Assembly: GCA_023133595.1 (NCBI GenBank)
Contig: JAGLWF010000003.1
Coordinates: 44,369-108,368 of the forward strand
Origin: Nanobdellota archaeon
GTDB taxonomy: Archaea; Nanobdellota; Nanobdellia; Woesearchaeales; WJKV01
DNA length: 64,000 nt
Direction: 5' to 3'
Positions within the stretch are counted from its first letter, which is position 1, and every line of letters starts with the position of its first letter. The notes under the pieces were generated by a model that searched no databases, had not been told where the DNA came from, and saw only the letters and a program-made list of their open reading frames with translations. Made by a program: the position numbers and the translations under genes. Of the stretch, positions 4,466 through 50,610 are shown one piece after another.

Positions 4466-4467
4466 AA

Positions 4468-5614: not shown

Positions 5615-6031
5615 ATGTCGTACGTAGACCAATACTCGGAAAAAGTAAAAGAACATTTCATGCATCCAAAGAATATGGGGCATATCAAGGAAGAAGATCT
5701 TCAGCCAGGAGAAGAACTGGCTCGTGGAGAAGTTGGGAATCCAGCATGCGGAGATTTGATGACTATATTTTTGAAGATCAAAGACAGAAAGATAATTGAT
5801 GCAAAGATCAAGACATTTGGCTGTGCAGCCGCAATAGCATGTTCTTCAATAACAACTGAGATGGTTGTTGGATTGACAATTGACAAAGCACGGAAATTGA
5901 CAAAGAATCAAGTCGCGGACGAGCTTGAAGGATTGCCCCCATTAAAACTGCATTGTTCAAATCTAGCTGTTGATGCTTTGAACAAAGCATTAGACAATTA
6001 TGAACAAGGCATTGGAGTAGTAAGAAAATGA
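5615..6031 (+). CDS. iscU: Fe-S cluster assembly scaffold IscU/NifU
   Basis: The three conserved cysteines sit in GNPACGD, FGCAAAIAC and LHCSNLA contexts. Confidence 0.88.
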   Translation: MSYVDQYSEKVKEHFMHPKNMGHIKEEDLQPGEELARGEVGNPACGDLMTIFLKIKDRKIIDAKIKTFGCAAAIACSSITTEMVVGLTIDKARKLTKNQVADELEGLPPLKLHCSNLAVDALNKALDNYEQGIGVVRK

Positions 6032-6906: not shown

Positions 6907-7100
6907 AAATTATTATCAAAAAAGCAGGGAAAAAGGAGATTACAAAGAAATTTTCCGGAACCGGAAAAAAACTATTGGAAGAACTAAAGATAAATCCAGA
7001 AGAGGTATTGATTCTGAAGAATAACGAGCTGGTGGATGTCGATGCGCGTTTGACTGATAACGATAATATTGAGATCTTATCTGTTGTTTCAGGTGGATAA
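6903..7100 (+). CDS. Ubiquitin-like sulfur-carrier protein (ThiS/MoaD/TtuB family) with a C-terminal Gly-Gly
   Basis: 65 aa, ending ...SVVSGG-stop. Overlaps the start of the downstream TtuA gene by 1 nt. Confidence 0.55.
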   Translation: MKIIIKKAGKKEITKKFSGTGKKLLEELKINPEEVLILKNNELVDVDARLTDNDNIEILSVVSGG

Positions 7101-13651: not shown

Positions 13652-13731
13652 GTTATTCATAAAATACCCAAACATTTATAAATGGAAAAGCGATAGATAT
13701 TATCACACGGGATTGAAAGAGAGGTTGGTGG

Positions 13732-19700: not shown

Positions 19701-22700
19701 TGTTGTTAAAGGAATGGCGGCATTATATCTAGGTTCTAGTGATACGCAAGCACCGATGATAACAAACATTGACCTGCGAACCAATAATGGAAAACGCGGA
19801 ATCTATGTTGATGATTTCAGGGAAAATTATAAACGTATCAGAGTTCTAGAAGGAGGGGATGCGAACAATAATATTATGATACAATTGACCGCAGATGCGA
19901 TCGAAGCTGTTGTCTGCAGGTACAGTGAACAGTATCAGAACTTTGCGCAGATGGAGAATGAATTCTATTCATCCGAGTATGCGTTCTATCCAAAATCCCC
20001 ATTCATCAAACTTACAACTGGAACAAGCAAACGTTATTATGTAAGCTGCCGCGACAGCGCAGGCAATACAGCTGCACCGTACACTGTGGAACTTTCTGTT
20101 GACTTTAACGCGCCTGTTGAAATAATTGAGGCCTCTCCTGTTGGTTATGTGAACCAATACCCGATCATCAAGACAACAACTGTGCAGGATGTCGATTGTG
20201 TATATGATACTGCAACATCGACTAACAATCAGATGAAAAAGTATGATATTGCAGATTATTATGGCCATACAAGCGCGTTATTCCCGGGTTCTGTCATTGT
20301 CATCCCCGAGGAAGAAGATCAGACAATAACAGTGAGCTGCGGTTCTGGAGTCAGACAGACTTCTGAGACAATAACATTTGCACTTGACAAGACATTGCCA
20401 ACACTCACAATCACAAGCCCAGAGGATGATGAGGTGCTGGATACTCCGGACTTTGAACTTCGCGGATCAACAGAGATCGGTGTTGAGCTGGATATCTATG
20501 TCAACCGAGCATATCAAGGGAAAGTTGAAGTCTTATTGGACGGAACTTTTGATTCCACTGTTTCACTGGACACTTCTGGAGAGAATGTCATTGATGTAAT
20601 CGCAACAGATAAAGCAGGAAATAAGGTGGAAAAGAGCATTACTGTGACCACAACTTCTGATGCTTCCCGTGTTGTTGCAATATTTCCGTCAGCAGGTCTG
20701 ATTGGAGATCTGTCAGAGATTGTCGCTGTTGTGCGCGGAGAAAGATTCAGTCCGACACGGACAATATTTGACGTGTCAAAGGATGGAGAAACATTCAGCG
20801 GCAATGTGATCTATGATTCTGAAGAGGATGTTCTTGCATTTAAATCTACTTTAGGTTACTTCCCATCTGGAAATTATGAAGCTGAAGTAATCCCTGTTGA
20901 TAGTGATGGAATGCCTGGCTTTGTAAAGCGTGTATCATTCACAGTCGATGTGACACAGCCTAGATTGAGATGGATCTCACCATCATCAGAACGCGCAATA
21001 ATAAATAAACAAAATATACGGGCGGTTGTAGAACTGCAGCCGATATCGAACAGAAGAGTAATTACCCAGGCAGATATATCTGCGAGCAGTGACGGACTAG
21101 ACTTTTCAAAGTTCGACTTTGTCAAGAAAGGAGATCTTTATTATGCAGATCTTAGTCTGGCAGAAGGGGTCAATTATATCCGGATTGATGCTGCAGACCT
21201 TCCAGGCACAGTGCACCATACAAGAACAATTGTTGTTGATTTGCGAGGCGCAAGCGCAGTTATCGAGCCATCAGGCACGATCACAACATCGCGGCCGACA
21301 ATCATTGTCCAATTTTCAGAAGATGTCGAGCTTGTTTCCTTCTCTCTGACAGAGTTTGGCAATGGAGACAGATTCACGCATGCATTGGAATTATCAGATG
21401 CGACCAGCAGAGAGTTTACATTTGATGCAGTATCTCAACTATTATCTGGAAGCTATACTTTCTCGATAACTGTGAAAGATATCAATGGTAATGAAGCAAC
21501 AACAACCCAGAACTTTGTTGTCGACATCGGAGATGTTGTGCAGAAATTAGTGAAACCAAAGAATATGGTCGCTCCAGGAACACCGTTCAATCTCATACTT
21601 GAAACAAACCAGGATGCGAACTGCCGTTACTCGCGCATCTATGACCCGGGTGTGCATAGCTCGATAGGACAATTCACAGGCTTATTTGGCGAGACTGGCG
21701 GAATAAGGCATACAATAAATGAATTCACAAGTGTTGATGCGATCTACCCAGCCACTAATAATATCTATATCTGGTGTGAAGGCTTGACAACATTGAGAGA
21801 ATCGCAGCCAGTACTGTATGCATTCTCTATTGACAAGACCGCGCCCAGGATACTTGACGCTTATGTTGAACCAGATGAAGTTGCAGAATATCCATTGGAG
21901 ACAGAACTCTTTGTCGAGACAGACGAACCAGCAATATGCAAGTATGAGTGTAATAGTGCAACTGCCTCCTACGATTTCATGGATTATGCATTATCAGAAT
22001 CGTACGAAGAGATACAGAGCGGAATTATTGAACTTGAAGATAATACAATGTACTTGTGCAATATAGTATGCGCGAATCTTGCAGGATTGAAATCTGCAGT
22101 CTTGGAAGTTTCGTTTAATGTTGATACTTCATTGGGTGTTGGTCTGCGCATAATAAAGCCTAAAGACGGCGCTGCTTATTCAGAATATACAGTCCCATTA
22201 AAACTCAAGAGCGAGAATATTGCAGAATGTGAATATAGTCTTGATGGTGAAGAGGCAATAAACTTCCCAGACATTGGCCAGTCGTTTGAGATAATGCTTG
22301 AGAACCTGAGTGTTGGAAAGCATGAAGTTACTGTTGACTGTATCTATAGCACTGGAGATGGCAGTATATCATCCACCTTCTATATCGATGATACTCCGCC
22401 TTCTGAGACTGTTGTTAATGTCGGCGATGTCGCGTGCAGTTCAGAGAATATTGATGTGACATGGGAAGGTACCGATAGTGATAGTGGAATCATTGAATAT
22501 GAAGTGGCACTGCGTACAGAGGAATCAGAAGAAGGTGTATATGACGTAAAAGAATTTACATCTGTTGGAAATTCAACAAAACTGCCTCAAGGTTTCTTGC
22601 CAGATCTTGATTCGGAAAGATATGTATTCGGAGTAAAAGCAATGAATCGTGCAGGTCTATGGGGCGAACCAGTTGAAAGTTTGGTCTTCCTGATAGATCC

Positions 22701-24444
22701 AACACTGATAATTTGCATTGACGTGACACCACCAGAGATCACTCTCATGAAACAGCAGATCCCTGCAAAGACAACAATATCCTTATCGTGTGATGATGGA
22801 AATGAAAGCGGCTGCAACCCTGCGATGTTGTATGGTATTGCAGATGATGAGGACATGTGCGTTGCGAACCAGACATATCTAGTCCCAATAGAATTCACAG
22901 AACAGAAATTCTTCTGTTACTGGGCTTCTGACCTTGCAGGCAATGTTGTGGAAGAAACAGAAATTATTGTCATCCTGCCGTCTGAGATTGCTGGTTGTCC
23001 AAATGACCTTGATTGCGACAATATAACAAATGAACGGGACGAGGATATTGATGGCGATGGAATACCTAATTGTGTAGATCCTGATGATGACAATGATGGA
23101 ATTGTGGATTATAATACCGAGACAAACTTTAATGAAGACTTTGACGATGATAATGATGGAATAAATGATGACAGTGACTTTGATGTTGATAATGACCTGG
23201 ATAATGACGGCCTGGCCAATGGAATTGACGATGATATTGATTGTGACGGAATCCTGAACTGTGATGATCCTGACATGGATAATGACGGTTTATTGAATGA
23301 TTGGCTTGATGAGAACAATGGATTATTAGATTCTCCTGACAAAGACAATGATAATGACGGAACAATAGATGTTGATGATCCTGACTTTGGAAAAGCGACT
23401 GTTCCTGATACTGATAATGACTTGGATAATGATGGAATCCTGAATTCAATTGACGATGATATTGACGGTGATGGTATTCTGAATGAAGAGGATAGTGACT
23501 GGGATAATGACGGAGTCCCTAACTGTATGGACATTGACATAGATAATGATGGCAGATCTAATAGCGAAGATCCGGATTATACTGATGATTTTGATGAAGA
23601 TGGAATGCCTAATGACTGGGAAGAAATGTTTGGGCTGGATAAACTTGATTCTCTAGACAAGGAACTTGACAATGACAATGATGGTTTGATAAATGCTGAC
23701 GAATTTCAGTTCAGGACAGACCCTAATAATAAAGACAGTGATAATGATGGATATACAGATTATGATGAATTGTTTGGCTATGATGAACGATATGATCCAA
23801 CAGATCCAGAAAGCAAACCTCCATCGAAATTCCTTTTCATCTTAGTGATGGTTATCATCATCCTGTTGTTAGCTGCTTTTGGTTATTATGGCTACAAATA
23901 TTATTTGGGTTATCAGCAGAAGCGTGAGAAAGAAAAATTAGAAGCTAAACTGAGAGCGCGGCCAGCAACGCGGCGCTTGATGCGCGAAGTCAAGAAGAAA
24001 CCGAAGCCAAAACCAAAAGTTGTGATGCCAAAGGTTGACATTACAAAAGAATTAGAGGGGCGCAAGAAGCTGCGCGAAGAAAGAAGAAGAGCAAAGGTAC
24101 ATGTCAGAGAAAGATTGTTCGGCAAGTTTGGAGCAGGCAGAGGCAGGACGACAAAATTGAAGAAGCCAGAAGAGAAAGTGGGAAGAAAGCCAAAAAAACT
24201 TCCAGAGAGCTTCAGAAAACTTGACCGCATGGTTGGAAAAGGAAAATCTCTTGACGCTTTGATTGCAAAGAGAAAAGGGAAGGTCAAGATGAAGGAGATC
24301 GACCGACTAGGAAAGATAATCGAGAAAAGAGGAGAGCTCAAAAAGTCTGATTTTGATAAATTAATCGCATTAAGCAGTAAATTTTCACCAGAAACAAGAA
24401 AAGTCACAGGAAAGAAGAAAAGGAAAAAATTAAGGAGAATATAA
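13732..24444 (+). CDS. Giant (3570 aa) cell-surface protein: Sec signal, CarbopepD-regulatory-like domains, Cys-rich modules, TSP3-type Ca-binding repeat field, single C-terminal TM helix, ~180-aa polybasic cytoplasmic tail
   Basis: Uninterrupted 10.7-kb ORF. Signal MKYKIVLLLILILAIFTCLSSYVYAS. SGRVTDQSGNPIVGATVTAPSGSSVTDNGGFYTI and SGTVRDTQNRMIED... are carboxypeptidase-regulatory-like folds. The DxDxDG repeat field, TM helix FLFILVMVIIILLLAAFGYYGY and K/R-rich tail are read directly. Confidence 0.8.
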   Translation: MKYKIVLLLILILAIFTCLSSYVYASCCVNEQTSFTSVVNDITCIDNLPLSACPVGYNATVASCSAVPQCGCCVCTPASGGKQVFASGDMRVSNNFCTAFCSQATGDPTHQLIPGLTAAQCSGQIAAQTVSGRVTDQSGNPIVGATVTAPSGSSVTDNGGFYTIGVIAPVTTLNISKSGISTSIQVDTRIRTTGWNVSLTLAARVADLYGKVTPIINNVPSTTPIPNTRIKITDGVNTFNTMTDAVGEYRFIGIPLATYQLTANKCAYFKKQESVTVSAPTTAHNILLQPAPKEIISGTVRDTQNRMIEDVDFIVSPPAGVVTKSDANGRFLITDIDSNCQYSIKATKTPQYSEQSKVVNIYADDFVTTNPLNFVLAPGPAFNFCADIGDCRGEDMRLGSADDCGCPANKICNALTGECDARPIVDCCDFTFQCQPQAAKLAPTPQCAGKTTCANTCAEIIDCPVDEKLSNANVDGVCECSGQLVSVTPSIAELYNIPLASGKYCCPYSSTPITNMTCQAQSKAIVFGTIVSKITQLPIDAAIHVDGSLIPIGYSDAETGEYEIYLTPNTAHTIQFRREPLYLPVIRSVQAFNLKKGVRYRLDAELRTTEILCNYPTNPPVPEFAAEHVKCKPEAKLVWDKDYCRNDIGVQSFAIANVNDDKIYLVDKDQDEFIIKDLEWGETYDFTIQAVYADSNRPRASDPVTISFSAGDADCAGQCDDKEFCLSNTQRRICDNKNKLSSAVSPGSFADCAEHKTAEGTEADWFCAGPNQQGKTVCLMENQCGYDLSSPVPFLGLLFNDLKCSRNLNTGKMNNGCYLDRSTTTVDFCYSCPKPDSEDFNCYTYDSKYACENNRCNLPGDCRWVPTSYFNLGEGICYDYNMISDTKYDQIEAGKEIGSECSECSKQGDLFGNIDCEQDACSKLGLCYSSDEQGTSCFECSEQTACSDFKTRESCISATGEDRRFNLFSSPSAPESAQYSDDACGLGVCAWNEVNGTCYKDGNADGKSDCVSVQFGVESFNSVCARDTHPPTTTPNFDTLILNNMSDDPENIISFNVTEPIERFNYCLHKEGETECTGMYKISGTNTEFVKGYTISFNPVNQFRNIVDSAGNYKIRYFSEDMNKNVELLKETVLYIDPFAPQILIQNSAECLNCEEQLDCYTEDAYVSQFIVSMSADEISVCQAYLIPPGETRATTIYHDIFAVDVITPTTIIYAPETGLPDGNYRFVLECEDIVGNKIEEEHTFKIDSFNLISDPIPTGPVKELGISYDIDTSQVSNCYISIDGREDVIMDQGAGAKRHTLGKAYNINTYHSYRVKCIPKFAINPNRCDTEYYDFAIDNAPPKIKSYINGNEFDELDWTLFMTDPTDLVIIAEDKGIQNSEISFGIDHIAYCTRDDLLTCDPATALDAAKRFGESKIIIPVDKNIKVCYYAVDKGGNKGRIKCGKTLFTPIPDIAIDSPTQDTITDDPRLTVTALHDVSDATEAVISAFDGENSISVSASIIDATVSGTLTSLFPGLNIVYARIKTAGGMWGEDSVDVYYDTEGPVIELTSDRVFEYGDTIEVEAEIVDTHWTAVETPDGSGDVTEASAVIQSMLLTDNFTLLKAGKIFSQSITPILLQNNLYNYLPGEYLITINAKDRFGNIAVDTYNISIVDTSPTEIDVGLDDYGTREENTFYTTSTKPKIQVTTTEPATCELHMISSTPILVEDFWEDETSRAHEYESEHYLEFDTGSVQIFNAMILCTDLFGGNVDEVPIRIVYDDVAPDLALFSTLGTKQIEKEGFVYEITEPGQYGVLSTLITARDLRDNEEIICEYTCNKDENESCDPTTETRAGFMDFGMEEYNAGQIMQINVGSANIIDGEYRLDVNCTDKALNAITKDLVLFFNIQRDMFKIIAAGPSGEITSTAPDVYVLTNLPTSKCEWDKPLAGNVALTPATDKRMNRFFSFTPSGLAVGNYSYTIECAQFDTGNTDSIDVDFSISATGGATGTYVVKGMAALYLGSSDTQAPMITNIDLRTNNGKRGIYVDDFRENYKRIRVLEGGDANNNIMIQLTADAIEAVVCRYSEQYQNFAQMENEFYSSEYAFYPKSPFIKLTTGTSKRYYVSCRDSAGNTAAPYTVELSVDFNAPVEIIEASPVGYVNQYPIIKTTTVQDVDCVYDTATSTNNQMKKYDIADYYGHTSALFPGSVIVIPEEEDQTITVSCGSGVRQTSETITFALDKTLPTLTITSPEDDEVLDTPDFELRGSTEIGVELDIYVNRAYQGKVEVLLDGTFDSTVSLDTSGENVIDVIATDKAGNKVEKSITVTTTSDASRVVAIFPSAGLIGDLSEIVAVVRGERFSPTRTIFDVSKDGETFSGNVIYDSEEDVLAFKSTLGYFPSGNYEAEVIPVDSDGMPGFVKRVSFTVDVTQPRLRWISPSSERAIINKQNIRAVVELQPISNRRVITQADISASSDGLDFSKFDFVKKGDLYYADLSLAEGVNYIRIDAADLPGTVHHTRTIVVDLRGASAVIEPSGTITTSRPTIIVQFSEDVELVSFSLTEFGNGDRFTHALELSDATSREFTFDAVSQLLSGSYTFSITVKDINGNEATTTQNFVVDIGDVVQKLVKPKNMVAPGTPFNLILETNQDANCRYSRIYDPGVHSSIGQFTGLFGETGGIRHTINEFTSVDAIYPATNNIYIWCEGLTTLRESQPVLYAFSIDKTAPRILDAYVEPDEVAEYPLETELFVETDEPAICKYECNSATASYDFMDYALSESYEEIQSGIIELEDNTMYLCNIVCANLAGLKSAVLEVSFNVDTSLGVGLRIIKPKDGAAYSEYTVPLKLKSENIAECEYSLDGEEAINFPDIGQSFEIMLENLSVGKHEVTVDCIYSTGDGSISSTFYIDDTPPSETVVNVGDVACSSENIDVTWEGTDSDSGIIEYEVALRTEESEEGVYDVKEFTSVGNSTKLPQGFLPDLDSERYVFGVKAMNRAGLWGEPVESLVFLIDPTLIICIDVTPPEITLMKQQIPAKTTISLSCDDGNESGCNPAMLYGIADDEDMCVANQTYLVPIEFTEQKFFCYWASDLAGNVVEETEIIVILPSEIAGCPNDLDCDNITNERDEDIDGDGIPNCVDPDDDNDGIVDYNTETNFNEDFDDDNDGINDDSDFDVDNDLDNDGLANGIDDDIDCDGILNCDDPDMDNDGLLNDWLDENNGLLDSPDKDNDNDGTIDVDDPDFGKATVPDTDNDLDNDGILNSIDDDIDGDGILNEEDSDWDNDGVPNCMDIDIDNDGRSNSEDPDYTDDFDEDGMPNDWEEMFGLDKLDSLDKELDNDNDGLINADEFQFRTDPNNKDSDNDGYTDYDELFGYDERYDPTDPESKPPSKFLFILVMVIIILLLAAFGYYGYKYYLGYQQKREKEKLEAKLRARPATRRLMREVKKKPKPKPKVVMPKVDITKELEGRKKLREERRRAKVHVRERLFGKFGAGRGRTTKLKKPEEKVGRKPKKLPESFRKLDRMVGKGKSLDALIAKRKGKVKMKEIDRLGKIIEKRGELKKSDFDKLIALSSKFSPETRKVTGKKKRKKLRRI
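23000..23800 (+). repeat. Tandem thrombospondin-type-3-like Ca-binding repeats (DxDxDGxxDxxD) inside the giant gene; visible at DNA level as reiterated gat aat gat gg(n) units
   Basis: About 15 reiterations of D-N/D-D-G-I/L/V-x-N/D-x-x-D, e.g. DIDGDGIPNCVDPDDDNDGIVDY, DVDNDLDNDGLANGIDDDIDCDGILNCDDPDMDNDGLLND. Confidence 0.6.
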
Positions 24445-24445
24445 A

Positions 24446-24937
24446 ATGAAAAGAGGTCAAGTAGAAGCTAGAGTTGTTATTTATTTACTGGCAGTGTTTA
24501 TTGCGGCTTTGATATTATCTTATGGTTATTTGGCGATAAAAGGATTGATCTCGACACAGGAAGATATTCTGCTTGTCACATTCAAGGAAGATATAAAGAA
24601 TAAAGTGGATGAGAAAAGTTATGAGTTCAGGTCAGTTGAAAAATTATCATTTTCTCTTCCTACAACTTACGATGAGATCTGTTTTGGAGATCTTCGTAAT
24701 ATTGGTGCAGCATTGAATGCAATACCCGCTGGAAAAGTTTTGATCTCAGACAGTATTCGCGATGGGGTGAACCGCAATTTTTTCATTCTCCAGCGCGGAA
24801 AGCTCAAAGACGCGTTTTATATCGGAAAAATTGTTGTTGATGATAATTTTCAATGCTTGGAAGTTGCAAATGGAATGTTAAACTTAGAATTTAGGGCGCT
24901 AGGAAAATCTGGGGTCAAGATCTCTGAATGGACATAA
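24446..24937 (+). CDS. Class III signal peptide (pilin-like) protein, 163 aa
   Basis: MKRGQVEARVVIYLLAVFIAALILSYGYLAI; starts 2 nt after the giant gene's stop. Confidence 0.5.
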   Translation: MKRGQVEARVVIYLLAVFIAALILSYGYLAIKGLISTQEDILLVTFKEDIKNKVDEKSYEFRSVEKLSFSLPTTYDEICFGDLRNIGAALNAIPAGKVLISDSIRDGVNRNFFILQRGKLKDAFYIGKIVVDDNFQCLEVANGMLNLEFRALGKSGVKISEWT

Positions 24938-24938
24938 A

Positions 24939-25973
24939 ATGAAGAATCAAAAAGCAGCAATCGAATTACAGATCAATTGGATATTCGTAATGATCATAGG
25001 AGGGATAATCTTATTTTTCTTTATCGGAGTCGTTGCAAAACAAAGAGGGGTCTCTGAACAAAGGCTTGTGAATGAACTGATCCGAGATATTGATCAATAT
25101 ATCAGCGGTGCGAGTGTTGCGCCGCGCGGTGCTGCTAGCCTGCCAGTACCTGGATATGATATTCAATTTACTTGTGATCATCTGCAGATCAAGAACCAGC
25201 GTTCCCTGCTGGAAAGCCGGGTGGTGTTTGCTCCGGATTATGTTGACAAAGAGGATCGACAGTTGATAGTCTGGGCCCTGCCGTGGGAAATCCCCTACGA
25301 TGTGACCAACTTTCTTTATGCGACAGGTCCAGGCGTACGTTATGTTTTTGTCTATGAAGACGATAAATATGATGATTTTTACTATAATTTTGTGACAGAC
25401 AAGATCAATAAGATAAAGGTCCCTATCAAAGATGCTGGTAGAGTCCTGGATTTTGTGGATGAAGGGAGTTATAGGACCCGGATCGTGATGCTCGGCCAGA
25501 TGGAGCCAGTGCAAGTACCAGCATTTGCAAAGAATAAAGATACTTCTTTTGTATGGATCCCTTTTTTTGATCCACGAGAAAAATTGCCGGCTGGCGAAGT
25601 ATATTTTTTACAGTATAATCCTACAACTGAAGAATTCGAACCAGCAGAATCTAAATTTGTTGGAGTTCCATCTGTGATTGGTGCGGTCTTCAGCAGTTCT
25701 TTAGAAAATTATAATTGCGCAATGGCAAAAGCGTTCAAAAACCTTCACACTGTGAATACAGTATTTGCTAAAAAAGTGGAATTGCTAGGCGCGTCACAGG
25801 TTTGTCCGGCTTTCTATGGAGAGTATGACCGGAATCTCTTGGCAGAGATCTCAGCATATACTGAATACCCCGGGAACTGGCAATTAGATCTTGAAGATTT
25901 GTTGTCAAAAGTTGCTTCCCTCAGACAAAGAAATTTTTTGATTGAGTCACAATCATGTCCATTGATATACTAA
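24939..25973 (+). CDS. Class III signal peptide (pilin-like) protein, 344 aa
   Basis: MKNQKAAIELQINWIFVMIIGGIILFFFIGVV; coupled to its neighbours (2-nt gaps). Confidence 0.5.
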   Translation: MKNQKAAIELQINWIFVMIIGGIILFFFIGVVAKQRGVSEQRLVNELIRDIDQYISGASVAPRGAASLPVPGYDIQFTCDHLQIKNQRSLLESRVVFAPDYVDKEDRQLIVWALPWEIPYDVTNFLYATGPGVRYVFVYEDDKYDDFYYNFVTDKINKIKVPIKDAGRVLDFVDEGSYRTRIVMLGQMEPVQVPAFAKNKDTSFVWIPFFDPREKLPAGEVYFLQYNPTTEEFEPAESKFVGVPSVIGAVFSSSLENYNCAMAKAFKNLHTVNTVFAKKVELLGASQVCPAFYGEYDRNLLAEISAYTEYPGNWQLDLEDLLSKVASLRQRNFLIESQSCPLIY

Positions 25974-25974
25974 A

Positions 25975-26478
25975 ATGAGAAGAAAAAGAAAAAGAGCGCA
26001 GATACAGACACTGGAGACAGTCGCAGTCCTTTTTGTCTTCTTCTTATTGATATCCTTAAGCCTGATATTCTATATGAGCTTTTCAAAAGGACGAGAAGCT
26101 GGAAAGATGGCAGAATTAAGCCACGAGCAAGCAGTACAAGTTGCACAAGTGATCTCAAACCTGCCAGAGATTCGCGCAACACAACAGGCAATACGGGGTG
26201 TGAATACTTTTGATCTTAAACAATTAGAAGCTCTTGAACTAGTGCTGGAGTCGGATCTTGAACTGAGCAAAGGGATATACCAGGAACGTTTTGGCACTAG
26301 CACGATCACAGTGCGCCAGATATTTCCTTCGCCAAAGAACTGGACAATCTATGATAATCCAGAACCCGGTGCAAAGTTCGAGACTCCGTTTTTTATCCCA
26401 GTTGCATTATACAATCCTTTGGATATTCCAGGTGGAAATTATTCATTTGGAATATTAGAAATAGTATTTTACAGTTAA
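25975..26478 (+). CDS. Class III signal peptide (pilin-like) protein, 167 aa
   Basis: MRRKRKRAQIQTLETVAVLFVFFLLISLSLIF. Confidence 0.5.
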   Translation: MRRKRKRAQIQTLETVAVLFVFFLLISLSLIFYMSFSKGREAGKMAELSHEQAVQVAQVISNLPEIRATQQAIRGVNTFDLKQLEALELVLESDLELSKGIYQERFGTSTITVRQIFPSPKNWTIYDNPEPGAKFETPFFIPVALYNPLDIPGGNYSFGILEIVFYS

Positions 26479-26479
26479 G

Positions 26480-26992
26480 ATGAAAAAAGCGCAGATGGAA
26501 ATCATGGGAATGGTTGTGATAGTCCTTATCCTTGTAGTTGCAATGATGTTTGTCCTATTTTTCGCGACACAGGAGAAACCAGGCGAAGGAATAAAAGATT
26601 TTGATGATAAGCTTTATTCATTCAACACTTTGAGCGCAGTGCTGCATACAAATGTTCCTTTCAGGAGCTTGCAGATGCAATCTGTGATCGAGATGTGCAT
26701 GTGGAATGATATCTGGGTTGGACAGGCACATACAATGTCGCCGTGCGAATATGCATCAGCAGGCATAGCAACCATGCTATCGCACTCTTTATCTTATATT
26801 GGCCAGGATTATCATTTTTATGTCTCTACAAATACTGATCCGGATTTTTACAAGATTGATGTGAAAAGCTCTACAGACCCCGCATTATGTGCAGGAGACA
26901 TACAGAGCGCGACGCAACCATTGACATATGCAGGAGGCACAATGTATATCGTCCTTGACATCTGCAGCAAACCACGAGGTGAAATCTCATGA
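26480..26992 (+). CDS. Class III signal peptide (pilin-like) protein, 170 aa
   Basis: MKKAQMEIMGMVVIVLILVVAMMFVLFF. Confidence 0.5.
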   Translation: MKKAQMEIMGMVVIVLILVVAMMFVLFFATQEKPGEGIKDFDDKLYSFNTLSAVLHTNVPFRSLQMQSVIEMCMWNDIWVGQAHTMSPCEYASAGIATMLSHSLSYIGQDYHFYVSTNTDPDFYKIDVKSSTDPALCAGDIQSATQPLTYAGGTMYIVLDICSKPRGEIS

Positions 26993-27102
26993 ATAAGAAT
27001 GGAGAAATTACAACACGAACATTGGTAATCATCATAGCTACATTGGTAGGAATATTCATACTAGCAATGTTATTTTTCAGAACATTCAATATCTTAAAAT
27101 GA
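26989..27102 (+). CDS. Tiny (37 aa) pilin-like ORF, below the ORF-track length cut-off; translationally coupled on both sides (ATGA overlaps)
   Basis: Manual translation: MNKNGEITTRTLVIIIATLVGIFILAMLFFRTFNILK. Start overlaps the upstream stop (tcATGa) and the stop overlaps the downstream start (aaATGa). Confidence 0.4.
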   Translation: MNKNGEITTRTLVIIIATLVGIFILAMLFFRTFNILK

Positions 27103-27986
27103 AGAAGAACAAGAAAGGCGGAATCAGCATTGTCCTTAAAGTCCTAGTCTTATTGATAGTTCTGCTTGCTGCAAGTTTCTTTTTGTTATATTTTGAAGTC
27201 TATGCTGGAGAAAAAGCAACACAAGCAATAGAACCTTGCCTGTGCAGATTGAGTGTTGATAGAGTCGCTGCAACAAAATTTCTCGAAACAGAGAGCAGGT
27301 TTGGTCTGGATTGCGGTACGCGGTTTGTCAACATATATAAAGCGGATGAATATAAAGTTAAAGAAAAAGGAGACCGTATTGATTATCATATTTCAAATAC
27401 AAAAGAGCTGAAAGACGCATTTGCGCGCGAAATAACATTGGGATGCTGGGAGATGGGTGCTGGAGAAGATAATCCATATCCCAACCTGATAACATTGACA
27501 AAAGGAAGAAGCAGCAGGTGCGTGATCACGTCCCAGATAACAGTGGATCAAAAAGTTATCAATTCATTCGGTTCTTCACTTACTGATTTTGAATCTCATC
27601 TGATCAGCTATAGTTTCAGCGAGTGCGGTGTCGCTAAGCAAGCAGGCCAGATATTAGGAGATAAAATCTCTTTTGACACAATAGATATGACCCGAGGAAA
27701 TGTTCCGATCACATTATCTGTTGTCTGGTCAGGCACGATCTCGCCAGATCTTCAGGCAGCGAAAACAATGACAGAACTCGGTCCGAAACTTTATCTTATT
27801 GGAAAAGCACTGCAATACATTCCATATATCAGTGTTGTTGGCAGTGGTTTGCAGGTGGTAGGCAAGGCAGGAGTTGTCGGCGGCATTGGCTATAATCTTG
27901 TGAATATTGACGACGATGTCTATCTTTTCGCAATCGCTATTGGTCCAGCTGACGAGGTTGGAAAGACATGCGGACAATTATACTGA
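27099..27986 (+). CDS. Class III signal peptide (pilin-like) protein, 295 aa
   Basis: MKKNKKGGISIVLKVLVLLIVLLAASFFLLYF. Confidence 0.5.
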   Translation: MKKNKKGGISIVLKVLVLLIVLLAASFFLLYFEVYAGEKATQAIEPCLCRLSVDRVAATKFLETESRFGLDCGTRFVNIYKADEYKVKEKGDRIDYHISNTKELKDAFAREITLGCWEMGAGEDNPYPNLITLTKGRSSRCVITSQITVDQKVINSFGSSLTDFESHLISYSFSECGVAKQAGQILGDKISFDTIDMTRGNVPITLSVVWSGTISPDLQAAKTMTELGPKLYLIGKALQYIPYISVVGSGLQVVGKAGVVGGIGYNLVNIDDDVYLFAIAIGPADEVGKTCGQLY

Positions 27987-27988
27987 AA

Positions 27989-28774
27989 ATGAATAAAAAG
28001 GCTACGATTGGAATGGTATGGAATGTGATCATAGCAATACTTGTAGGAATAGTGGCTTTGATAATCCTGACATTTTTCCTGCAATCCACAGGAGAGGCTG
28101 CAGAACGCCTGCAGGAAGATGTCATGTGCAAGGTCAGTGTGGAGGAAGCTGTACGTAGCGGAGACTGGTGGGGAGATGTAATTAGATGTCCGACAAAGTA
28201 TCATGAACTGAAAAAAGTTAGTGAAGAGGAAGTCAAGAAATTGATTGCGCAGCGCAGTATCACGTGCTGGGATAAGTTCGGAAGAGGAGAGAAATTATTA
28301 TTTGCGCAGGACCCTAAATTGTTCGGCACAGACAAAGCTTCATATTGCAATGTGTGCGATGTGTTTGAATTTGAGAAAGTTAAGCCAATCCTTGAATTTG
28401 GCACTTATCTGACAGGACATAATGTCTCTTCATATTATTCAAAAGAACCGATCAGCCAGTTTGAATTCTTGAATCGTGTAAAGCTAGAGTCGGATGAAAA
28501 GACTGAGCTAGAGAACACTGTGCTGAAACAGGTGGGGATAGATACTGCAAATTCTTATGCAATTGTCTTCATCTATACAAAGGATCCGAAATTCTTTGCA
28601 ATGAAATACTTTCTTGGAGAAGCGAGCAAGAATTATCTGCCAGCAAAGATATATTTCAGCAGTCTGAGCTACATGCTTGGTGATGACGGGCTTGCAGATT
28701 GGGATGCGCGGATAGCCCTGGTGCCTTACAAAAAAGAGCAATTACAGAAGGCTTGCGAGTATCTCGAAGAATAA
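27989..28774 (+). CDS. Class III signal peptide (pilin-like) protein, ~261 aa (start moved to the internal ATG at 27989)
   Basis: MNKKATIGMVWNVIIAILVGIVALIILTFFL. Starting at 27989 removes the overlap with the upstream gene and places the KKA motif at the N-terminus. Confidence 0.45.
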   Translation: MNKKATIGMVWNVIIAILVGIVALIILTFFLQSTGEAAERLQEDVMCKVSVEEAVRSGDWWGDVIRCPTKYHELKKVSEEEVKKLIAQRSITCWDKFGRGEKLLFAQDPKLFGTDKASYCNVCDVFEFEKVKPILEFGTYLTGHNVSSYYSKEPISQFEFLNRVKLESDEKTELENTVLKQVGIDTANSYAIVFIYTKDPKFFAMKYFLGEASKNYLPAKIYFSSLSYMLGDDGLADWDARIALVPYKKEQLQKACEYLEE

Positions 28775-28808
28775 ATTTAAATAGAATGTTTCATTTGATG
28801 GTGTCAAG

Positions 28809-28979
28809 ATGTGGTGGATGTTGCTTAAATCAAACATGAGGGACAATAAAGGAGATATTTCTGTCAAGGCAATTGTCATCATCATAATTGCAATCGCAAT
28901 CCTGGTCTTGCTGCTCTACATGGCAGCAACAAAAGGAAAAGGAATGTTTACTGTGTGGGAAAAAGGCCCGTTTAGCTAA
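28809..28979 (+). CDS. Tiny (56 aa) pilin-like ORF, not in the ORF track
   Basis: Manual translation: MWWMLLKSNMRDNKGDISVKAIVIIIIAIAILVLLLYMAATKGKGMFTVWEKGPFS. NKG followed by an ~18-aa hydrophobic stretch. The overlapping track ORF 28888-29100 in another frame looks spurious. Confidence 0.4.
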   Translation: MWWMLLKSNMRDNKGDISVKAIVIIIIAIAILVLLLYMAATKGKGMFTVWEKGPFS

Positions 28980-28981
28980 AA

Positions 28982-29212
28982 ATGAAGACAATAGATATCA
29001 TCATAGTGCTTATCATTGCATTGCTAGTGATTGTGCTTGTAATGCTGATATTTTTTCCAAAGATAAAGCATACAGACGTAATCTCAGAAGAATTTGTTAA
29101 GAAGACATTAGAAGAACAGACAGCAGCAGAAGCGGATCCAGAGATACTGGCTGGAATCACTACAGCAGTATCTGGTTCTGAGACAGGGATTTTGGTGCTG
29201 GATCCTCTCTGA
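28982..29212 (+). CDS. Small (76 aa) N-terminally membrane-anchored protein within the pilin-like cluster (no canonical [KR][GA] motif)
   Basis: MKTIDIIIVLIIALLVIVLVMLIFF... then an acidic C-terminal half. Confidence 0.35.
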   Translation: MKTIDIIIVLIIALLVIVLVMLIFFPKIKHTDVISEEFVKKTLEEQTAAEADPEILAGITTAVSGSETGILVLDPL

Positions 29213-29281
29213 AGCTATAGCAACATTTATATATGAGAGATACGGCCTGTTATATGGTAATAAGCATAAGAGGTGAACAAG

Positions 29282-29575
29282 ATGCGCAATAAAAAGGGAT
29301 TAGAAATGTCAATGAGTATTGTTGTGATCGCAGTACTGGCAATCCTGGTATTAGTTGTTCTCGCAGTTATTTTTACAACACAAACAGGAAAAGTAGGAAA
29401 AGAAATCCAAGGATGTATTGCAACAGGCGGTCTGTGTAAAGATGCAGCAGAAGGCTGTAACCCTGATACAGAAGTACAGGGTAGAGAAGGAGCATATAAC
29501 TGTCCAGAAGATACTGTGTGCTGCTTTGATAAAAATCTTGCATCAGCAAGAGGCCTGAAGACAGAGCTCATTTGA
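29282..29575 (+). CDS. Small class III signal peptide pilin-like protein (~97 aa) with a Cys-containing C-terminal domain; candidate major or minor pilin subunit
   Basis: MRNKKGLEMSMSIVVIAVLAILVLVVLAVIF, then ...GCIATGGLCKDAAEGCNPD...CPEDTVCC. Start moved to the internal ATG at 29282. Confidence 0.5.
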   Translation: MRNKKGLEMSMSIVVIAVLAILVLVVLAVIFTTQTGKVGKEIQGCIATGGLCKDAAEGCNPDTEVQGREGAYNCPEDTVCCFDKNLASARGLKTELI

Positions 29576-29637
29576 TTTTTATTATTATTTTTCTTTATGA
29601 CAACCTTTATATATGAAACAAACCTATTTTCTAGAAA

Positions 29638-29946
29638 ATGACATATAAAAAGAGGTGCAATAGGAAAGCACAAAATCTTTCTATGCAGGTTGTGGTCATA
29701 ATCATAATTGCAGTGCTTGTGCTCATTGTGGTGGCATTGATGTTTTCTGGCCAGGTATTCAAAGGAAAAAAGGAGATAGATTATATCTCTGCACCGATCG
29801 AATACCAGACAGCATGCCTGAAACAGAACGTACTGCCCTACGCAGAATGTGTTGCAAAATGTAAAGCATGGATTGCAGAGCATCCTGGCGAGCATTTGAA
29901 GAATGCTGTTGTTGATGGTGCGGATTGTTATGTTAAGAAAAAATGA
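29638..29946 (+). CDS. Small class III signal peptide pilin-like protein (102 aa)
   Basis: ...CNRKAQNLSMQVVVIIIIAVLVLIVVALMF; C-terminal domain with 4 Cys. Confidence 0.5.
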   Translation: MTYKKRCNRKAQNLSMQVVVIIIIAVLVLIVVALMFSGQVFKGKKEIDYISAPIEYQTACLKQNVLPYAECVAKCKAWIAEHPGEHLKNAVVDGADCYVKKK

Positions 29947-30638
29947 GAAATAGAAAAGGACAGACTACCTGGATCTCCCAAGAATATATTCTTGTTGTAC
30001 TTGCAGTTGTAGGATTGTTCATCCTGATGACTTTTGGCATTCGTGTGTGCAGCACGATCGAACAAAGCGAGACAAAAGGCAGTTTTGAATCATTCATGGA
30101 TGTCTATGAAGGGATTAACATATTGACAAGCCAGAATCTTACAAAATGCGGTGTTGCGGTCGCTTTCCAGGATAATGAGGCGCTTGTTGGCTTCAGTGCT
30201 GCGCAGGCAAGAGTAAGTCCAAAAATAGGAACTTTGCGAAGCTTGACAAGATGGATCTCTGATACTAGAATCAATAGGCCAGAGGCAGAATACTGTCCTC
30301 CAGCAGTATCTTGCTTGGTGCTATGTAATGTTGAAAGTACGCCAAATGCTGATGATTGCAGAGGCACGTTAAGGTTAGACTCGCGCGAATTTTTCAATGT
30401 ATCTGTGATCAAGCGCAGGGATGGCAATGCGCGGGATATGGTATACTTTGGTGACGAGAAAGCAGAAGTTGAATATTTGACACTTGAAAAGATCGGAACA
30501 GTACCGTACACAATTCATATCTATAAAGGAGATGCGCAGATAAAACCGTGTCAGAGCGCTGTCAAGATTGCTGAGCGCAAGTTCGGAGAGAAACCTAAGT
30601 TCGAGACACCAACAATAGAAGAAATAGATTTATCGTGA
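29943..30638 (+). CDS. Class III signal peptide (pilin-like) protein, 231 aa
   Basis: MRNRKGQTTWISQEYILVVLAVVGLFILMTFG; 4-nt overlap with the upstream gene. Confidence 0.5.
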   Translation: MRNRKGQTTWISQEYILVVLAVVGLFILMTFGIRVCSTIEQSETKGSFESFMDVYEGINILTSQNLTKCGVAVAFQDNEALVGFSAAQARVSPKIGTLRSLTRWISDTRINRPEAEYCPPAVSCLVLCNVESTPNADDCRGTLRLDSREFFNVSVIKRRDGNARDMVYFGDEKAEVEYLTLEKIGTVPYTIHIYKGDAQIKPCQSAVKIAERKFGEKPKFETPTIEEIDLS

Positions 30639-30645
30639 GTCTGAG

Positions 30646-31509
30646 ATGAGATCTAATAAGAGAGGGATAATAAGCGAGCAGTTGTATATTCTATTTGGAA
30701 TTCTCGTTGTTGTTGTTTTTTCAATCAATGCGTACAAGTTTGTGAATGGAATAGCTTCTGAATCTGCAATGCAGCAGCAGTTCGCAGTGCGTGACCTTGC
30801 AATGATAGGAACAACAGCATCTGGAGCACCAGGTACTTTGGCATATGTCTTCTTTATGCAGAATTCGAGGCAAAAAGTTCTGCCAGGGCAATTGTCATTG
30901 GCATTTTATGATCCGAAGACAGAAACTTTCCTGAAATATGCTGAATATTTCTTTACGTATTCAAAAAATCAAAAGTTCCAGAAAAGCAGAAACTTGACAA
31001 ATTCAATGCACATTGTCAGAAACGGGGATGAATTTGCATTCTATAACGCTTATTCCAAGAGCATGGGATCGAAAGATCTTGACTGCCGGAATTATATGCA
31101 GACAAAGACTATCGGAGAGTTTGCGAAAAATAAGATTGTGATCAGCCTTCGCAGTAAGGAAAATTATGTCAAATTAATTGCAGAGAAAATTCATTCTGGA
31201 CTTGGCGGAGGCCTGGCAACAGGACAGAACGTGGTTCTTGATCTGGACGGGACAATGGAGGGAGGAGATATTTTTGTTGTATTAAAAGATGAAAACAAGA
31301 CATCTATAGTTCTTGGAACCCCGACACAGGAGACAAAAAAACTTGGCTGTATGATAAAAGATGAAGTAGGAGCAGCAGAGATTGACCAGGACTATCATTT
31401 GGATCTGATAAATAATCCTGCACTGATCAAGATTCTGGTCAAAATCCCGCAGGGAGAGGATTATTCCTCTGAGATAGCAAGCAGTATACTAGGGTATTAT
31501 CATGAATAA
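30646..31509 (+). CDS. Class III signal peptide (pilin-like) protein, 287 aa
   Basis: MRSNKRGIISEQLYILFGILVVVVFS. Confidence 0.5.
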   Translation: MRSNKRGIISEQLYILFGILVVVVFSINAYKFVNGIASESAMQQQFAVRDLAMIGTTASGAPGTLAYVFFMQNSRQKVLPGQLSLAFYDPKTETFLKYAEYFFTYSKNQKFQKSRNLTNSMHIVRNGDEFAFYNAYSKSMGSKDLDCRNYMQTKTIGEFAKNKIVISLRSKENYVKLIAEKIHSGLGGGLATGQNVVLDLDGTMEGGDIFVVLKDENKTSIVLGTPTQETKKLGCMIKDEVGAAEIDQDYHLDLINNPALIKILVKIPQGEDYSSEIASSILGYYHE

Positions 31510-32005
31510 ACGAGGATTGGCGTTCAATCAGATGATAAAGATTGCTGAATTAGTTTTATTAGTGATAGTATTGATGGCATTATATTTCTGTCTGAGGCAT
31601 GCAGTCTCTACTTTGCACGATACAAGCTCTGCAGAAGCTGTCTCGTATGTAACTAATATTCTTTATTCAAAAGACGGGATAATGTTGTATGATCCTGAAA
31701 TTGACCGAGTGTATCCTGGAATCATTAGTAATTTTGATAGTGCAGTGCTGGATTCTTCAATGAAAGTCAATATCAGCGGAGAGTTCCCAGCTGCAAAATT
31801 AACATTGATTGATGCAAAATCTGGCGGGGAGCAGGTGATCTACTGGAATGAGAAGTGGTACAACCGTCTCAAGGAGAAAATTGGATTCAAGGGAAAAGCC
31901 AGTCCGCATATGCGCACTGAGAATCTTGTTGTGAATGTTGCTCAGCCTGATGGAAGCATATCTTTATCCTATCTGACAATAGAGGTTTTGGTGCCTAGAA
32001 GATGA
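31502..32005 (+). CDS. Class III signal peptide (pilin-like) protein, 167 aa
   Basis: MNKRGLAFNQMIKIAELVLLVIVLMALYF; 8-nt overlap with the upstream gene. Confidence 0.5.
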   Translation: MNKRGLAFNQMIKIAELVLLVIVLMALYFCLRHAVSTLHDTSSAEAVSYVTNILYSKDGIMLYDPEIDRVYPGIISNFDSAVLDSSMKVNISGEFPAAKLTLIDAKSGGEQVIYWNEKWYNRLKEKIGFKGKASPHMRTENLVVNVAQPDGSISLSYLTIEVLVPRR

Positions 32006-32586
32006 GAAAGAACAAAAGAGCTGGAATTGCGAACATGTTCGAGATAATCGGTGCCTCACTATTCATACTTGTCCTGTTCATAATCTTCTGCAGCGGATTT
32101 TTTATTGATTTTAATAGAATAAATGTTATGGTGACTGGAGCAACCATTGGTTATAATCATGATATAACAATGCAGAGTTATCTGCGCGCACCTGTTGAGT
32201 ACAACAATGAGACAATCATAATGCTTGACTTGATAAATATTGCAATTTCTGAAGGTGATTCTACGCTTCTCGAGGCTGAGACACAGAAAATTTTGATACA
32301 ATATGTCTATGATAACAAATTCTGGTATGTTGGTGTGTGGGATATGCAGAGGAGTGATTTTAGTAAAGTATTGAATGAATATGTTGATTATGATGATTTT
32401 GAAGATATAATGGATGAAGATCCAGGCTATGAGATCGGTAACAGCAGGTTGTTGGTGAACATGCACAGGCTTGAACCAAAAGATAAAGGAGAGAATAAAG
32501 AATTGAAATTCACACAGGTCCCGTATTTTTCCAGTGGGGAGAAAAAATTTATGATCTTAGTCTTCCAGGTAGGTGAAGCAAAATGA
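32002..32586 (+). CDS. Class III signal peptide (pilin-like) protein, 194 aa
   Basis: MRKNKRAGIANMFEIIGASLFILVLFIIF; 4-nt overlaps on both sides. Confidence 0.5.
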   Translation: MRKNKRAGIANMFEIIGASLFILVLFIIFCSGFFIDFNRINVMVTGATIGYNHDITMQSYLRAPVEYNNETIIMLDLINIAISEGDSTLLEAETQKILIQYVYDNKFWYVGVWDMQRSDFSKVLNEYVDYDDFEDIMDEDPGYEIGNSRLLVNMHRLEPKDKGENKELKFTQVPYFSSGEKKFMILVFQVGEAK

Positions 32587-33911
32587 ACAAGAAAGGAGTC
32601 TTGAGCATATTTCTGGCTGTGATGACTACTTTTATCATAATCTATGCTTTCATTGTCCTTGGAAATACTGGAAAGATCAATGACAGAATTGTTGGAATGG
32701 ATGCTATTAAATTAGGGGAATTGTATCAGATAGGAGAGGATGCAAGATCATATATTGACAATGCTGCGCATTATTCCAAAGGCCCTGCATTGTATTTATT
32801 TGAGAAAAATGGTTTGTTTCCAGAGTGCGGAGAGATGGAAACATACTTTTTGTGGAAGAATAAGACGCACGAGTGTTATCCAGACGAAAATTCAATCTCT
32901 TTCGGAATACGCAGCGCATTTGCATCGATCATAAACCCATATCTTGAGAATTATTTATTGTACGACATAACCTTGGATTATGTGACTCCTGCTGATCTTA
33001 AGTTCAAGGATTCCGCGATCATGGGATATCCATTTGACAGCCTGGTAGTTAATAATGATCCCTTCTATTCAGTGAGCCAGGGCTTTTCTGTTGATTATGA
33101 TTATCCGTTTGATTATGGTGAGATCCAGAACCATGTTATGCAGATAAATGATCAGTGTAAAGATAAAGAAGGGATGGCATTGAAGAATTGTGTTGACAGC
33201 GAGATAAATAAAGTAAATATTTTTGAATCCCGGAGGAGCAGGGAATGGATTTTTGGAGGCTGTGGCAGTACAGACGAGGCAATGCTGAATGCTTTCGCTG
33301 AAAAATATAATGATTGTGCTTCTTCACATGATTACAAATGTGACTGTCCAAGTGCAGCTTACGATCCCAGGATAAACATACAAGGACAAGTCGCAGTGCT
33401 AGGGAATGAATCTTCTTTGCTCGGCTTGCCGTTCAATGCAGGCGCAATGCTTCCTGGAGCGCGCCTGGTAAAGCAGAAGAATTTCATTGACCTTGCAGTC
33501 TCGGGAGCAGTCAATCCGATATGCCGATCAGATCGCCGTATGTTTCGAGTTTGTGTGAAACAACCATTCCGTGTTCGGATTGGAAATGAGAGGAAACAGT
33601 TGATGACACGGTTTGCATTCTATGTAGATGATGGGTTTGCGCCAGAACCAGTGGTTGTTTCTGAAAGAAATGATAAGAAAGCGTTTGAATGGCTGCCATC
33701 TGGTTCAGCAGATGTGGAAGAGTATCGTGTGTTTGTCTACAAAAAAGGTTTAGTTCCTGATTATTCTACTTATGATATTGTTTTACGGGAAACAAATTCT
33801 GATGAAAAATTATCTTTTATGAAGGATACAACAATTTACGATATAGAAGTGGTCGCTGTAGATTTTGACGGCAATTGCATGATCTCTGGAAAGAAACAAA
33901 AATGCAAATGA
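32583..33911 (+). CDS. Class III signal peptide (pilin-like) protein, 442 aa, Cys-containing extracellular domain; last gene of the array
   Basis: MNKKGVLSIFLAVMTTFIIIYAFIVLGN. Confidence 0.5.
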   Translation: MNKKGVLSIFLAVMTTFIIIYAFIVLGNTGKINDRIVGMDAIKLGELYQIGEDARSYIDNAAHYSKGPALYLFEKNGLFPECGEMETYFLWKNKTHECYPDENSISFGIRSAFASIINPYLENYLLYDITLDYVTPADLKFKDSAIMGYPFDSLVVNNDPFYSVSQGFSVDYDYPFDYGEIQNHVMQINDQCKDKEGMALKNCVDSEINKVNIFESRRSREWIFGGCGSTDEAMLNAFAEKYNDCASSHDYKCDCPSAAYDPRINIQGQVAVLGNESSLLGLPFNAGAMLPGARLVKQKNFIDLAVSGAVNPICRSDRRMFRVCVKQPFRVRIGNERKQLMTRFAFYVDDGFAPEPVVVSERNDKKAFEWLPSGSADVEEYRVFVYKKGLVPDYSTYDIVLRETNSDEKLSFMKDTTIYDIEVVAVDFDGNCMISGKKQKCK

Positions 33912-50476: not shown

Positions 50477-50610
50477 TAAAATTCTGAAAATTACAAGGAA
50501 TTTATAAATATTCGGAATCATAGTTCTAGTAAACTTCTTTTATCCCAATTTTACAATAATCCTTCTAAAAAACTCTTCAAAAAGCATATAAATCTGAAGT
50601 ACGCATTATC

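Follow-up and report, generated by a model that had tools for sequence, protein, structure and literature searches.

In a 64,000-nucleotide (nt) stretch of contig JAGLWF010000003.1 from a Nanobdellota archaeon (referred to below as the window), an open reading frame (ORF) of 37 codons lies between two pilin-like genes and overlaps both of them. Comparison of the orthologous loci shows this micro-gene to be a genuine protein-coding gene under purifying selection in its sense frame, and the ORF is almost certainly translated. Its product is an extreme new form of helix-only pilin-like protein that belongs to no described family. The reading that we favor, with slightly better than even confidence, is that it is a type IV pilin-like precursor cut down to its N-terminal end, which would be processed and would pack with the pilin-like helices encoded by the surrounding cluster. 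The ORF had been proposed in a preliminary description of the window, and its coordinates, its sequence, and both overlaps are reproduced here exactly. The features at the junction are the following (aa, amino acids; a slash marks the putative processing site).

26480..26992, plus strand: upstream pilin-like gene, 170 aa; N terminus MKKA/QMEIMG, then a hydrophobic helix
26976..26982, plus strand: Shine-Dalgarno heptamer GAGGTGA, 6 nt 5' of the ATG of the micro-gene, within the last codons (P-R-G-E) of the upstream gene
26989..27102, plus strand: micro-gene, 37 codons and a stop; product MNKNGEITTRTLVIIIATLVGIFILAMLFFRTFNILK
27099..27986, plus strand: downstream pilin-like gene, 295 aa; N terminus MKKNKKG/GISIV

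Conservation and selection at the orthologous junctions

The ATG of the micro-gene (26989-26991) lies over the TGA of the 170-aa gene (26990-26992) in the sequence tcATGa, and its own TGA (27100-27102) lies over the ATG of the 295-aa gene (27099-27101) in the sequence aaATGa, both as first described. When the micro-gene is left out, a gap of 106 nt remains, and no other non-coding stretch is as long in the run of 1-nt junctions beginning at 24444. The statement that the ORF is unannotated is true of GenBank, where the neighbors KAT43_01865 and KAT43_01870 carry consecutive tags and the 37-aa protein has no accession. One automatic gene caller called the micro-gene on the same assembly. It was missed by the caller behind the ENA copy of the contig, which is identical over 20.9 kb and so provides no independent evidence.

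Conservation of the reading frame at the orthologous junction had been set beforehand as a test, and it was found in three other lineages, in which the flanking genes are 46-79% identical to those of the window. The downstream protein has only two non-self relatives among 5.8 billion proteins (64-66% identity). The gene order on the contigs of both is that of the window, and a small gene is called at the same junction, encoding 55 aa in L004 and 51 aa in L005/L006. A distant lineage was added by a profile search with the upstream protein, where a cluster mate of the match led to contig L012. Its upstream gene is 46% identical, and its junction contains an ORF, MRMKKADISIQNLIYIILATVIIIFVIYVTINIVGGLK (36-38 aa), that was missed by every gene caller and that, like the window copy, overlaps both neighbors by ATGA. 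Relatives of the window contig carry the name Candidatus Woesearchaeota. Divided after the Gly or Ala of the putative processing site, the four products are as follows.

Window: leader MNKNG, followed by EITTRTLVIIIATLVGIFILAMLFFRTFNILK
L004: leader ...CRDRKG, followed by DISVRTLVIIIATLIGLFILAVLFFKSFEVLK
L005: leader ...MKNERG, followed by ELSLKALMIIIATLIGIFILAVLFFKSFKILK
L012: leader MRMKKA, followed by DISIQNLIYIILATVIIIFVIYVTINIVGGLK

The segment past the Gly/Ala is 32 residues long in all four lineages, begins with [DE][IL][ST], and ends with LK before the stop. The leaders are unrelated in sequence and measure 5 residues in the window, 23 in L004, 19 in L005, and 4-6 in L012. In a DNA alignment, the window leader is 42-54 nt shorter than those of L005 and L004, and the window ATG corresponds to an internal Met of L005. 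The micro-protein is 65-68% identical to its orthologues, and the range for its neighbors is 56-83%. Searched exhaustively with HMMER, 1.84 billion representative proteins yielded the three called members only, together with five spurious long repetitive proteins, and a word-index search with the micro-protein profile returned nothing past the three known members. Scans of JGI metagenomes with the downstream-gene and micro-protein alignments gave no relatives, and among GTDB representative genomes the L005 contig alone matched. Two further contigs do not extend across the junction: L008 ends 30 nt past the upstream-gene orthologue, and L009 is cut within it.

Over the 33 shared codons, the ratio of nonsynonymous to synonymous substitution rates (dN/dS) is 0.13-0.18, and the differences at the first, second, and third codon positions number 9/3/20, 11/3/15, and 13/2/21. 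In the 99-nt conserved part of the window copy, three of the six frames (+0, +2, and antisense -1) have no internal stops, so that an open frame in the window alone is weak evidence. In each of the three loci compared, the antisense -1 frame is also open, and its wobble positions coincide with those of the sense frame. Three other accounts of the junction are then conceivable: a spacer with an ORF that is open by chance, an opposite-strand gene (26871..27089, 72 aa), and a structured RNA. However, the sense frame is clearly better kept than the antisense frame, with an identity of 22-24 against 14-17 of 33 residues in the three loci and a BLOSUM62 score of 115-125 against 59-80. The ratio of the proportions of nonsynonymous and synonymous differences (pN/pS) also favors the sense frame, and both the stop position and the start context are kept for the sense ORF only. 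An antisense gene was rejected on this lower conservation; the ORF at 26871..27089 would in addition overlap the upstream gene by 120 nt. A structured RNA element was likewise rejected, as no Rfam match came near the gathering score and the folding z-score was -0.34. The conservation of the junction, the coding-type substitutions, and the perfect Shine-Dalgarno heptamer together exceed what chance would give, and any account of the junction without a protein-coding micro-gene is highly improbable.

Translation signals and coupling to the flanking genes

The Shine-Dalgarno consensus AGGAGGTGA is the complement of the usual 3' end of 16S rRNA, and GAGGTGA is a 7-nt match to it. The heptamer occurs three times in the window, each time 5-7 nt before an ATG: that of the micro-gene at 26989, that of a 97-aa small pilin gene at 29285, and that of a 206-aa minus-strand ORF near 38800. 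The hexamer AGGTGA is similarly placed before undisputed genes, namely RadA, a 442-aa gene, and a 513-aa gene. GAGGTGA is kept in L004 and L005 and is absent before the L012 micro-gene.

An in-frame TGA (26980-26982) is situated inside the Shine-Dalgarno sequence, upstream of the micro-gene ATG, and blocks an N-terminal extension of the ORF. A frameshift fusion to the upstream gene was rejected on the same ground, since the in-frame TGA lies three codons before the ATG in the window and in L005. Direct reading of the sequence shows that only 6 nt are left for a shift, with no slippery site. Fusion to the downstream gene was rejected because of the stops and the 14-17-nt gaps found in L004 and L005.

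The downstream 295-aa gene lacks a Shine-Dalgarno sequence and for that reason probably relies on ribosomes that reach it from the micro-gene. Because the three genes are very tightly packed, the micro-gene and the two flanking pilin-like genes are probably translated as a unit. The preliminary description took the perfect coupling on both sides as an argument for translation. Coupling on both sides is not conserved, however: both overlaps are present in the window and in L012, but in L004 and L005 the downstream overlap is replaced by gaps of 14-17 nt. The Shine-Dalgarno sequence and the purifying selection are stronger arguments for translation than the coupling.

In L012, the final codons of the micro-gene (1660..1678) read GTG GGA GGC CTC AAA TGA. 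They contain GGGAGG, 6-7 nt before the downstream ATG, and the C-terminal end of the L012 micro-gene therefore doubles as the ribosome-binding site of the next gene.

It could be supposed that the act of translation alone matters, carrying ribosomes to the downstream gene, and that the peptide has no function. A strong Shine-Dalgarno sequence before the micro-gene, a downstream gene that lacks one and starts within the micro-gene stop, and the GGGAGG placed ahead of the downstream start in L012 are all in line with such a relay. A relay puts no constraint on the amino acids, yet the dN/dS is low, the replacements are conservative, and the length of 32 residues is invariant. Nor is the overlap maintained, given the separation in L004 and L005. 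We consider a functionless peptide improbable.

A helix-only product and its kin in the surrounding cluster

The putative parts of the product are encoded as follows.

26989..27003, plus strand: putative leader MNKNG, 5 residues; Gly at -1 is conserved, and Asn rather than Lys or Arg is at -2
27004..27099, plus strand: putative mature peptide, 32 residues, consisting of EITTRT, the hydrophobic core, and RTFNILK
27022..27078, plus strand: hydrophobic core L12-F30, LVIIIATLVGIFILAMLFF, a membrane-spanning or filament-core segment

The Kyte-Doolittle 19-residue mean peaks at 3.1 in the core, which is also the most invariant block of the alignment. AlphaFold2 predicts one helix comprising residues 9-36, with a mean predicted local distance difference test score (pLDDT) of 86.5, in agreement with the earlier view of the product as essentially one hydrophobic helix. 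The residue at -1 is Gly in the window, L004, and L005 and Ala in L012, and the hydrophobic core begins six residues later. The N termini of the putative mature proteins are EITTRT, DISVRT, ELSLKA, and DISIQN, with Asp or Glu at +1 and, in three of the four lineages, Lys or Arg at +5. FlaFind allows Asp or Glu at +1. A review gives the class III criterion as Gly, Ala, or Ser at -1, before the hydrophobic domain (PMC4371748). Such a residue is present in all four lineages, and the H-domain of ~20 residues stays on the putative mature protein (L12-F30). A leader that varies beside a fixed Gly/Ala and [DE][IL][ST] is the pattern expected of a leader that is removed and a mature part that is functional.

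The micro-gene is part of a large cluster, in which it has a paralogue.

12284..33911, plus strand: one-strand cluster, with every gene on the plus strand and ~16 genes with [KR][GA] class III-like N termini
28809..28979, plus strand: mini-pilin gene paralogous to the micro-gene; product MWWMLLKSNMRDNKG/DISVKAIVIIIIAIAILVLLLYMAATKGKGMFTVWEKGPFS, 56 aa, of which 41 aa are in the mature part

Junctions in the cluster range mostly from a 1-2-nt gap to an 8-nt overlap. The products of approximately 16 of its genes open with a short, basic leader that terminates in [KR][GA] and continue with a few semi-polar residues and then a ~20-residue hydrophobic helix; examples of the N termini are MKRG/QVEAR..., MKKA/QMEIMG..., MRNRKG/QTTW..., and MNKKG/VLSIF.... 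Applied to the window, a crude class III rule picks out 14 ORFs within 8700..33911 and only 6 of the ~690 located elsewhere. Several genes of the cluster are very small, encoding 56 aa (28809..28979), 76 aa, 97 aa, and 102 aa.

When a profile of the micro-gene was compared with the 707 ORFs of the window, the best non-self match was 28809..28979 (E value 5e-8), followed by 29273..29575 (E value 0.002) and 29638..29946 (E value 0.017). BLASTP of the L004 micro-protein against the 56-aa protein aligned the leader MLLSCSCRDRKGDISVR with MLLKSNMRDNKGDISVK (E value 7e-7). Given the profile match and this leader alignment, the micro-gene seems to be a duplicate of the 56-aa mini-pilin gene in which the leader, the processing site, the helix, and seven residues beyond it have been kept. 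The two proteins share the leader/processing region MLL.S..RD.KG/DISV[KR] and an Ile-rich helix, are both conserved, and have no globular domain. In contrast to the micro-protein, the 56-aa protein has a 17-residue polar C-terminal half within its conserved 41-residue mature part, which gives it a Tad-like amphipathic layout. Its orthologues measure 59 aa in L004 and 56 aa in L005. The claimed kinship with the surrounding pilin-like genes is borne out by this paralogy, and a pilin-family ancestry of the micro-gene is well supported.

Other genes of the cluster deserve mention. The 56-aa gene itself would encode a second helix-only mini-pilin, whose 41-residue mature part is also below the 45 residues of the Caulobacter Tad pilin. 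Next to it, a conserved 76-aa gene (28982..29212, plus strand) opens with the hydrophobic helix MKTIDIIIVLIIALLVIVLVMLIFFPKIKH without a [KR][GA] motif; not all small membrane proteins of the cluster are therefore class III-like. In the more distant contig L010, an N terminus MSFRDILTIIIVLFIIVIVVYSLYP, like that of the 76-aa gene, comes after the small pilins. Two Cys-rich small pilin-like genes (29285..29575 and 29638..29946, plus strand; ~97 and ~102 aa) follow in the window, the first with a perfect GAGGTGA, and L010 has Cys-rich genes of 94 and 79 aa after the upstream-gene orthologue. The Cys-rich genes could plausibly encode the major filament subunits. A 222-aa minus-strand ORF over the small pilin genes (29227..29895) is Cys/His-rich, looks of low complexity, is present in neither gene call, and is most likely a shadow ORF rather than a gene. 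For the 268-aa ORF at 27968..28774 (plus strand), the true start is probably 27989 (MNKKATIG..., 261 aa), since the orthologues in both L004 and L005 are also 261 aa long and 27989 is the start chosen in the ENA gene call; the 19-nt overlap with the 295-aa gene would therefore be a first-ATG artifact. Toward its beginning, the cluster contains a gene for a predicted surface protein of 3570 aa (13732..24444, plus strand) with Ig-like, Glucodextran_B, Big_13, and CarboxypepD_reg-type matches. This giant gene is preceded by genes for a 1194-aa protein (8700..12284) and a 455-aa protein with the canonical N terminus MKRG/Q (12284..13651). In L005/L006, the counterparts of these proteins have different lengths, measuring 1531 aa and, where the end of the contig truncates the gene, at least 1373 aa.

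Comparison with known pilins, proposed role, and other features of the window

The micro-protein resembles archaeal class III, or type IV pilin-like, proteins in its short basic leader with Gly at -1 and in the semi-polar stretch and ~20-residue helix that follow the processing site (PMC4371748, PMC2910488), as well as in its clustering with genes of the same N-terminal design. It differs from them in ending seven residues past the helix, in the Asn at -2, and in matching no curated profile. Predicted class III proteins range from <150 to >1000 aa (PMC4371748), against 37 aa for the micro-gene product.

Flp/Tad and Epd pilins also have no globular domain. Their mature protein is one helix with a hydrophobic N-terminal half, as AlphaFold2 predicts for the micro-protein, and their leaders are 5-14 residues long with a terminal Gly (PMC11067988, PMC3875500). 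The Caulobacter Tad pilin PilA is a 59-aa precursor with 45 mature residues that form a single amphipathic helix (PMC11067988). The Epd major pilin MMP1685/EpdE of M. maripaludis has 74 aa, 62 of them mature, and its small relatives have 54-63 mature residues and leaders of 5-13 residues (PMC3875500). A recent survey describes the Epd pilin as lacking a globular domain, like Tad pilins (bioRxiv 10.64898/2026.04.22.720090). In contrast, the micro-protein has 32 mature residues in all four lineages against 45-62, which makes it 13-30 residues shorter than the characterized helix-only pilins, and the exposed amphipathic C-terminal half is almost absent. The Glu5/Tyr6 signature of Flp pilins (PMC11067988) and the Gln+1/Glu+5 signature of Epd/DUF361 pilins (PMC3875500) are missing as well. 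HMMER, Pfam/NCBIfam, and PDB searches detected no sequence homology to Flp/Tad or Epd pilins, and the PDB sequence search returned generic transmembrane helices only.

In the favored reading, the precursor would consist of a short cytoplasmic leader, the Gly/Ala processing position, ~6 semi-polar residues, a helix of ~19 residues, and a basic tail of seven residues. It would be inserted into the membrane with its N terminus inside, as would its neighbors. An archaeal prepilin peptidase would then trim it after the Gly to leave the 32-residue helix, a step that would be secure for the relatives with Lys or Arg at -2 and is doubtful for the Asn-bearing window copy. The N-terminal peptide would be EITTRTLVIIIATLVGIFILAMLFFR if the protein is processed and MNKNGEITTR if it is not. 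The 32-residue helix would pack against the N-terminal helices of the larger pilin-like proteins encoded in the cluster. Because a seven-residue tail cannot cover the helix, we favor a role as a minor subunit made of the helix alone, or as an assembly partner that stays in the membrane at the base of the filament, over that of a bulk filament subunit.

Several results weigh against this reading. Archaeal prepilin peptidases reportedly depend critically on a charged residue at -2 (PMC4371748), but the window copy has Asn4 at this position, with Lys at -3, and does not pass a strict class III rule. The class III signal motif first ascribed to the ORF is thus incomplete in the window copy (MNKNG/E); in L004, L005, and L012, the residue at -2 is Lys, Arg, and Lys. 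Two of the seven tail residues are basic, and the prediction of an inside N terminus is therefore weaker for the short-leader window copy. Since such a tail is unable to shield a hydrophobic helix in a homopolymer, incorporation into a filament is not obvious. The micro-protein, its orthologues, and its neighbors match no pilin or class III family at E values up to 1 in Pfam and up to 10 in NCBIfam. The 170-aa upstream protein is modeled by AlphaFold2 as an N-terminal helix (residues 2-29) and an alpha/beta domain (pLDDT 78), and Foldseek with this model found no solved pilin; the best matches (E value 4e-3, TM score ~0.3) were all ribosomal proteins. A Pfam scan of the large ORFs in the 64-kb window brought up no secretion ATPase, platform protein, or A24 peptidase, and none was found in the 10 kb beyond the window start. 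Their absence does not settle the matter, since M. maripaludis has pilin clusters that stand apart from the machinery (PMC3875500). Finally, in L010, where the identity of the upstream gene drops to 26%, the genes are ordered differently and the micro-gene is lacking; by this comparison the micro-gene family is very narrow, limited to a small clade.

Of the proposal that the product is a minimal pilin, the pilin-like ancestry and the design with only the N-terminal helix stand. The pilin assignment proper finds no curated family match, no machinery within the region scanned, and a neighbor whose fold matches no solved pilin. The interpretation first given is partly supported, and the filament-subunit role of the micro-protein is put forward here as a candidate only.

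The main rival is an unprocessed single-pass membrane micro-protein with an accessory or chaperone-like role, for example in stabilizing or anchoring the 295-aa protein, that would be neither a peptidase substrate nor a filament subunit. The Asn at -2 of the window copy (PMC4371748), the basic C-terminal tail with its very short extramembrane part, and the lack of pilus machinery in the region scanned would all suit such a protein. Another conserved small membrane protein of the cluster, encoded at 28982..29212 (MKTIDIIIVL...), has no class III motif, and the micro-gene is found only where a 295-aa-type gene follows, both being missing after the L010 upstream orthologue. In contrast, the Gly/Ala at -1 and the [DE][IL][ST] at +1 to +3, fixed in four lineages beside a leader that is free to vary, are hard to explain without processing. 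Three of the four orthologues have the canonical [KR][GA], and the paralogy with proteins that have canonical class III N termini is clear. An unprocessed accessory protein is thus a tentative alternative that we regard as less than probable. Such a protein would be just another small membrane protein without an assigned role.

A more far-reaching reading, in which the 32-residue peptide is a true filament subunit, is rather unlikely. It would be the shortest type IV pilin known, ~30% below the Caulobacter Tad pilin, and might act as a core-only filler or priming subunit that enables the large-headed pilin-like proteins and the giant adhesin-like protein to assemble into the surface structure with which a DPANN episymbiont clings to its host. 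A true filament subunit of this size would set a lower size limit for pilin assembly and would represent a new class of minor pilin. If the micro-protein is processed and assembled, the known minimum for a type IV pilin falls from 45 to 32 residues, and filaments may hold subunits that contribute to the hydrophobic core only. The micro-gene is also a conserved gene skipped by annotation, missing in GenBank and uncalled in L012. It marks a large uncharacterized cluster, comprising ~16 pilin-like genes and the gene for the 3570-aa surface protein, in Woesearchaeota-like DPANN archaea, a group in which little is understood of the machinery for cell-cell attachment.

The surroundings include archaeal marker genes (MCM, TBP, RNase P p30, RadA, and PolD). 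Elsewhere in the window, ThiI is apparently split, with a ferredoxin-like and THUMP part at 6028..6906 (plus strand) and a PP-loop domain 50 kb away at 58589..59191 (minus strand). The former sits in a sulfur-relay-like group that comprises a cysteine desulfurase (4441..5613), NifU (5615..6031), a 65-aa ThiS/SAMP2-like gene (~6903..7100), and a PP-loop ATPase (7100..8005). A free-standing 327-aa ORF (56412..57395, minus strand) matches LAGLIDADG_3 (E value 2.5e-8) and lies where the GC content of the window is lowest (0.32). Two sulfatase-family genes ~330 nt apart (47525..48733 and 49061..50521, minus strand) are an unusual cargo for a small DPANN genome.

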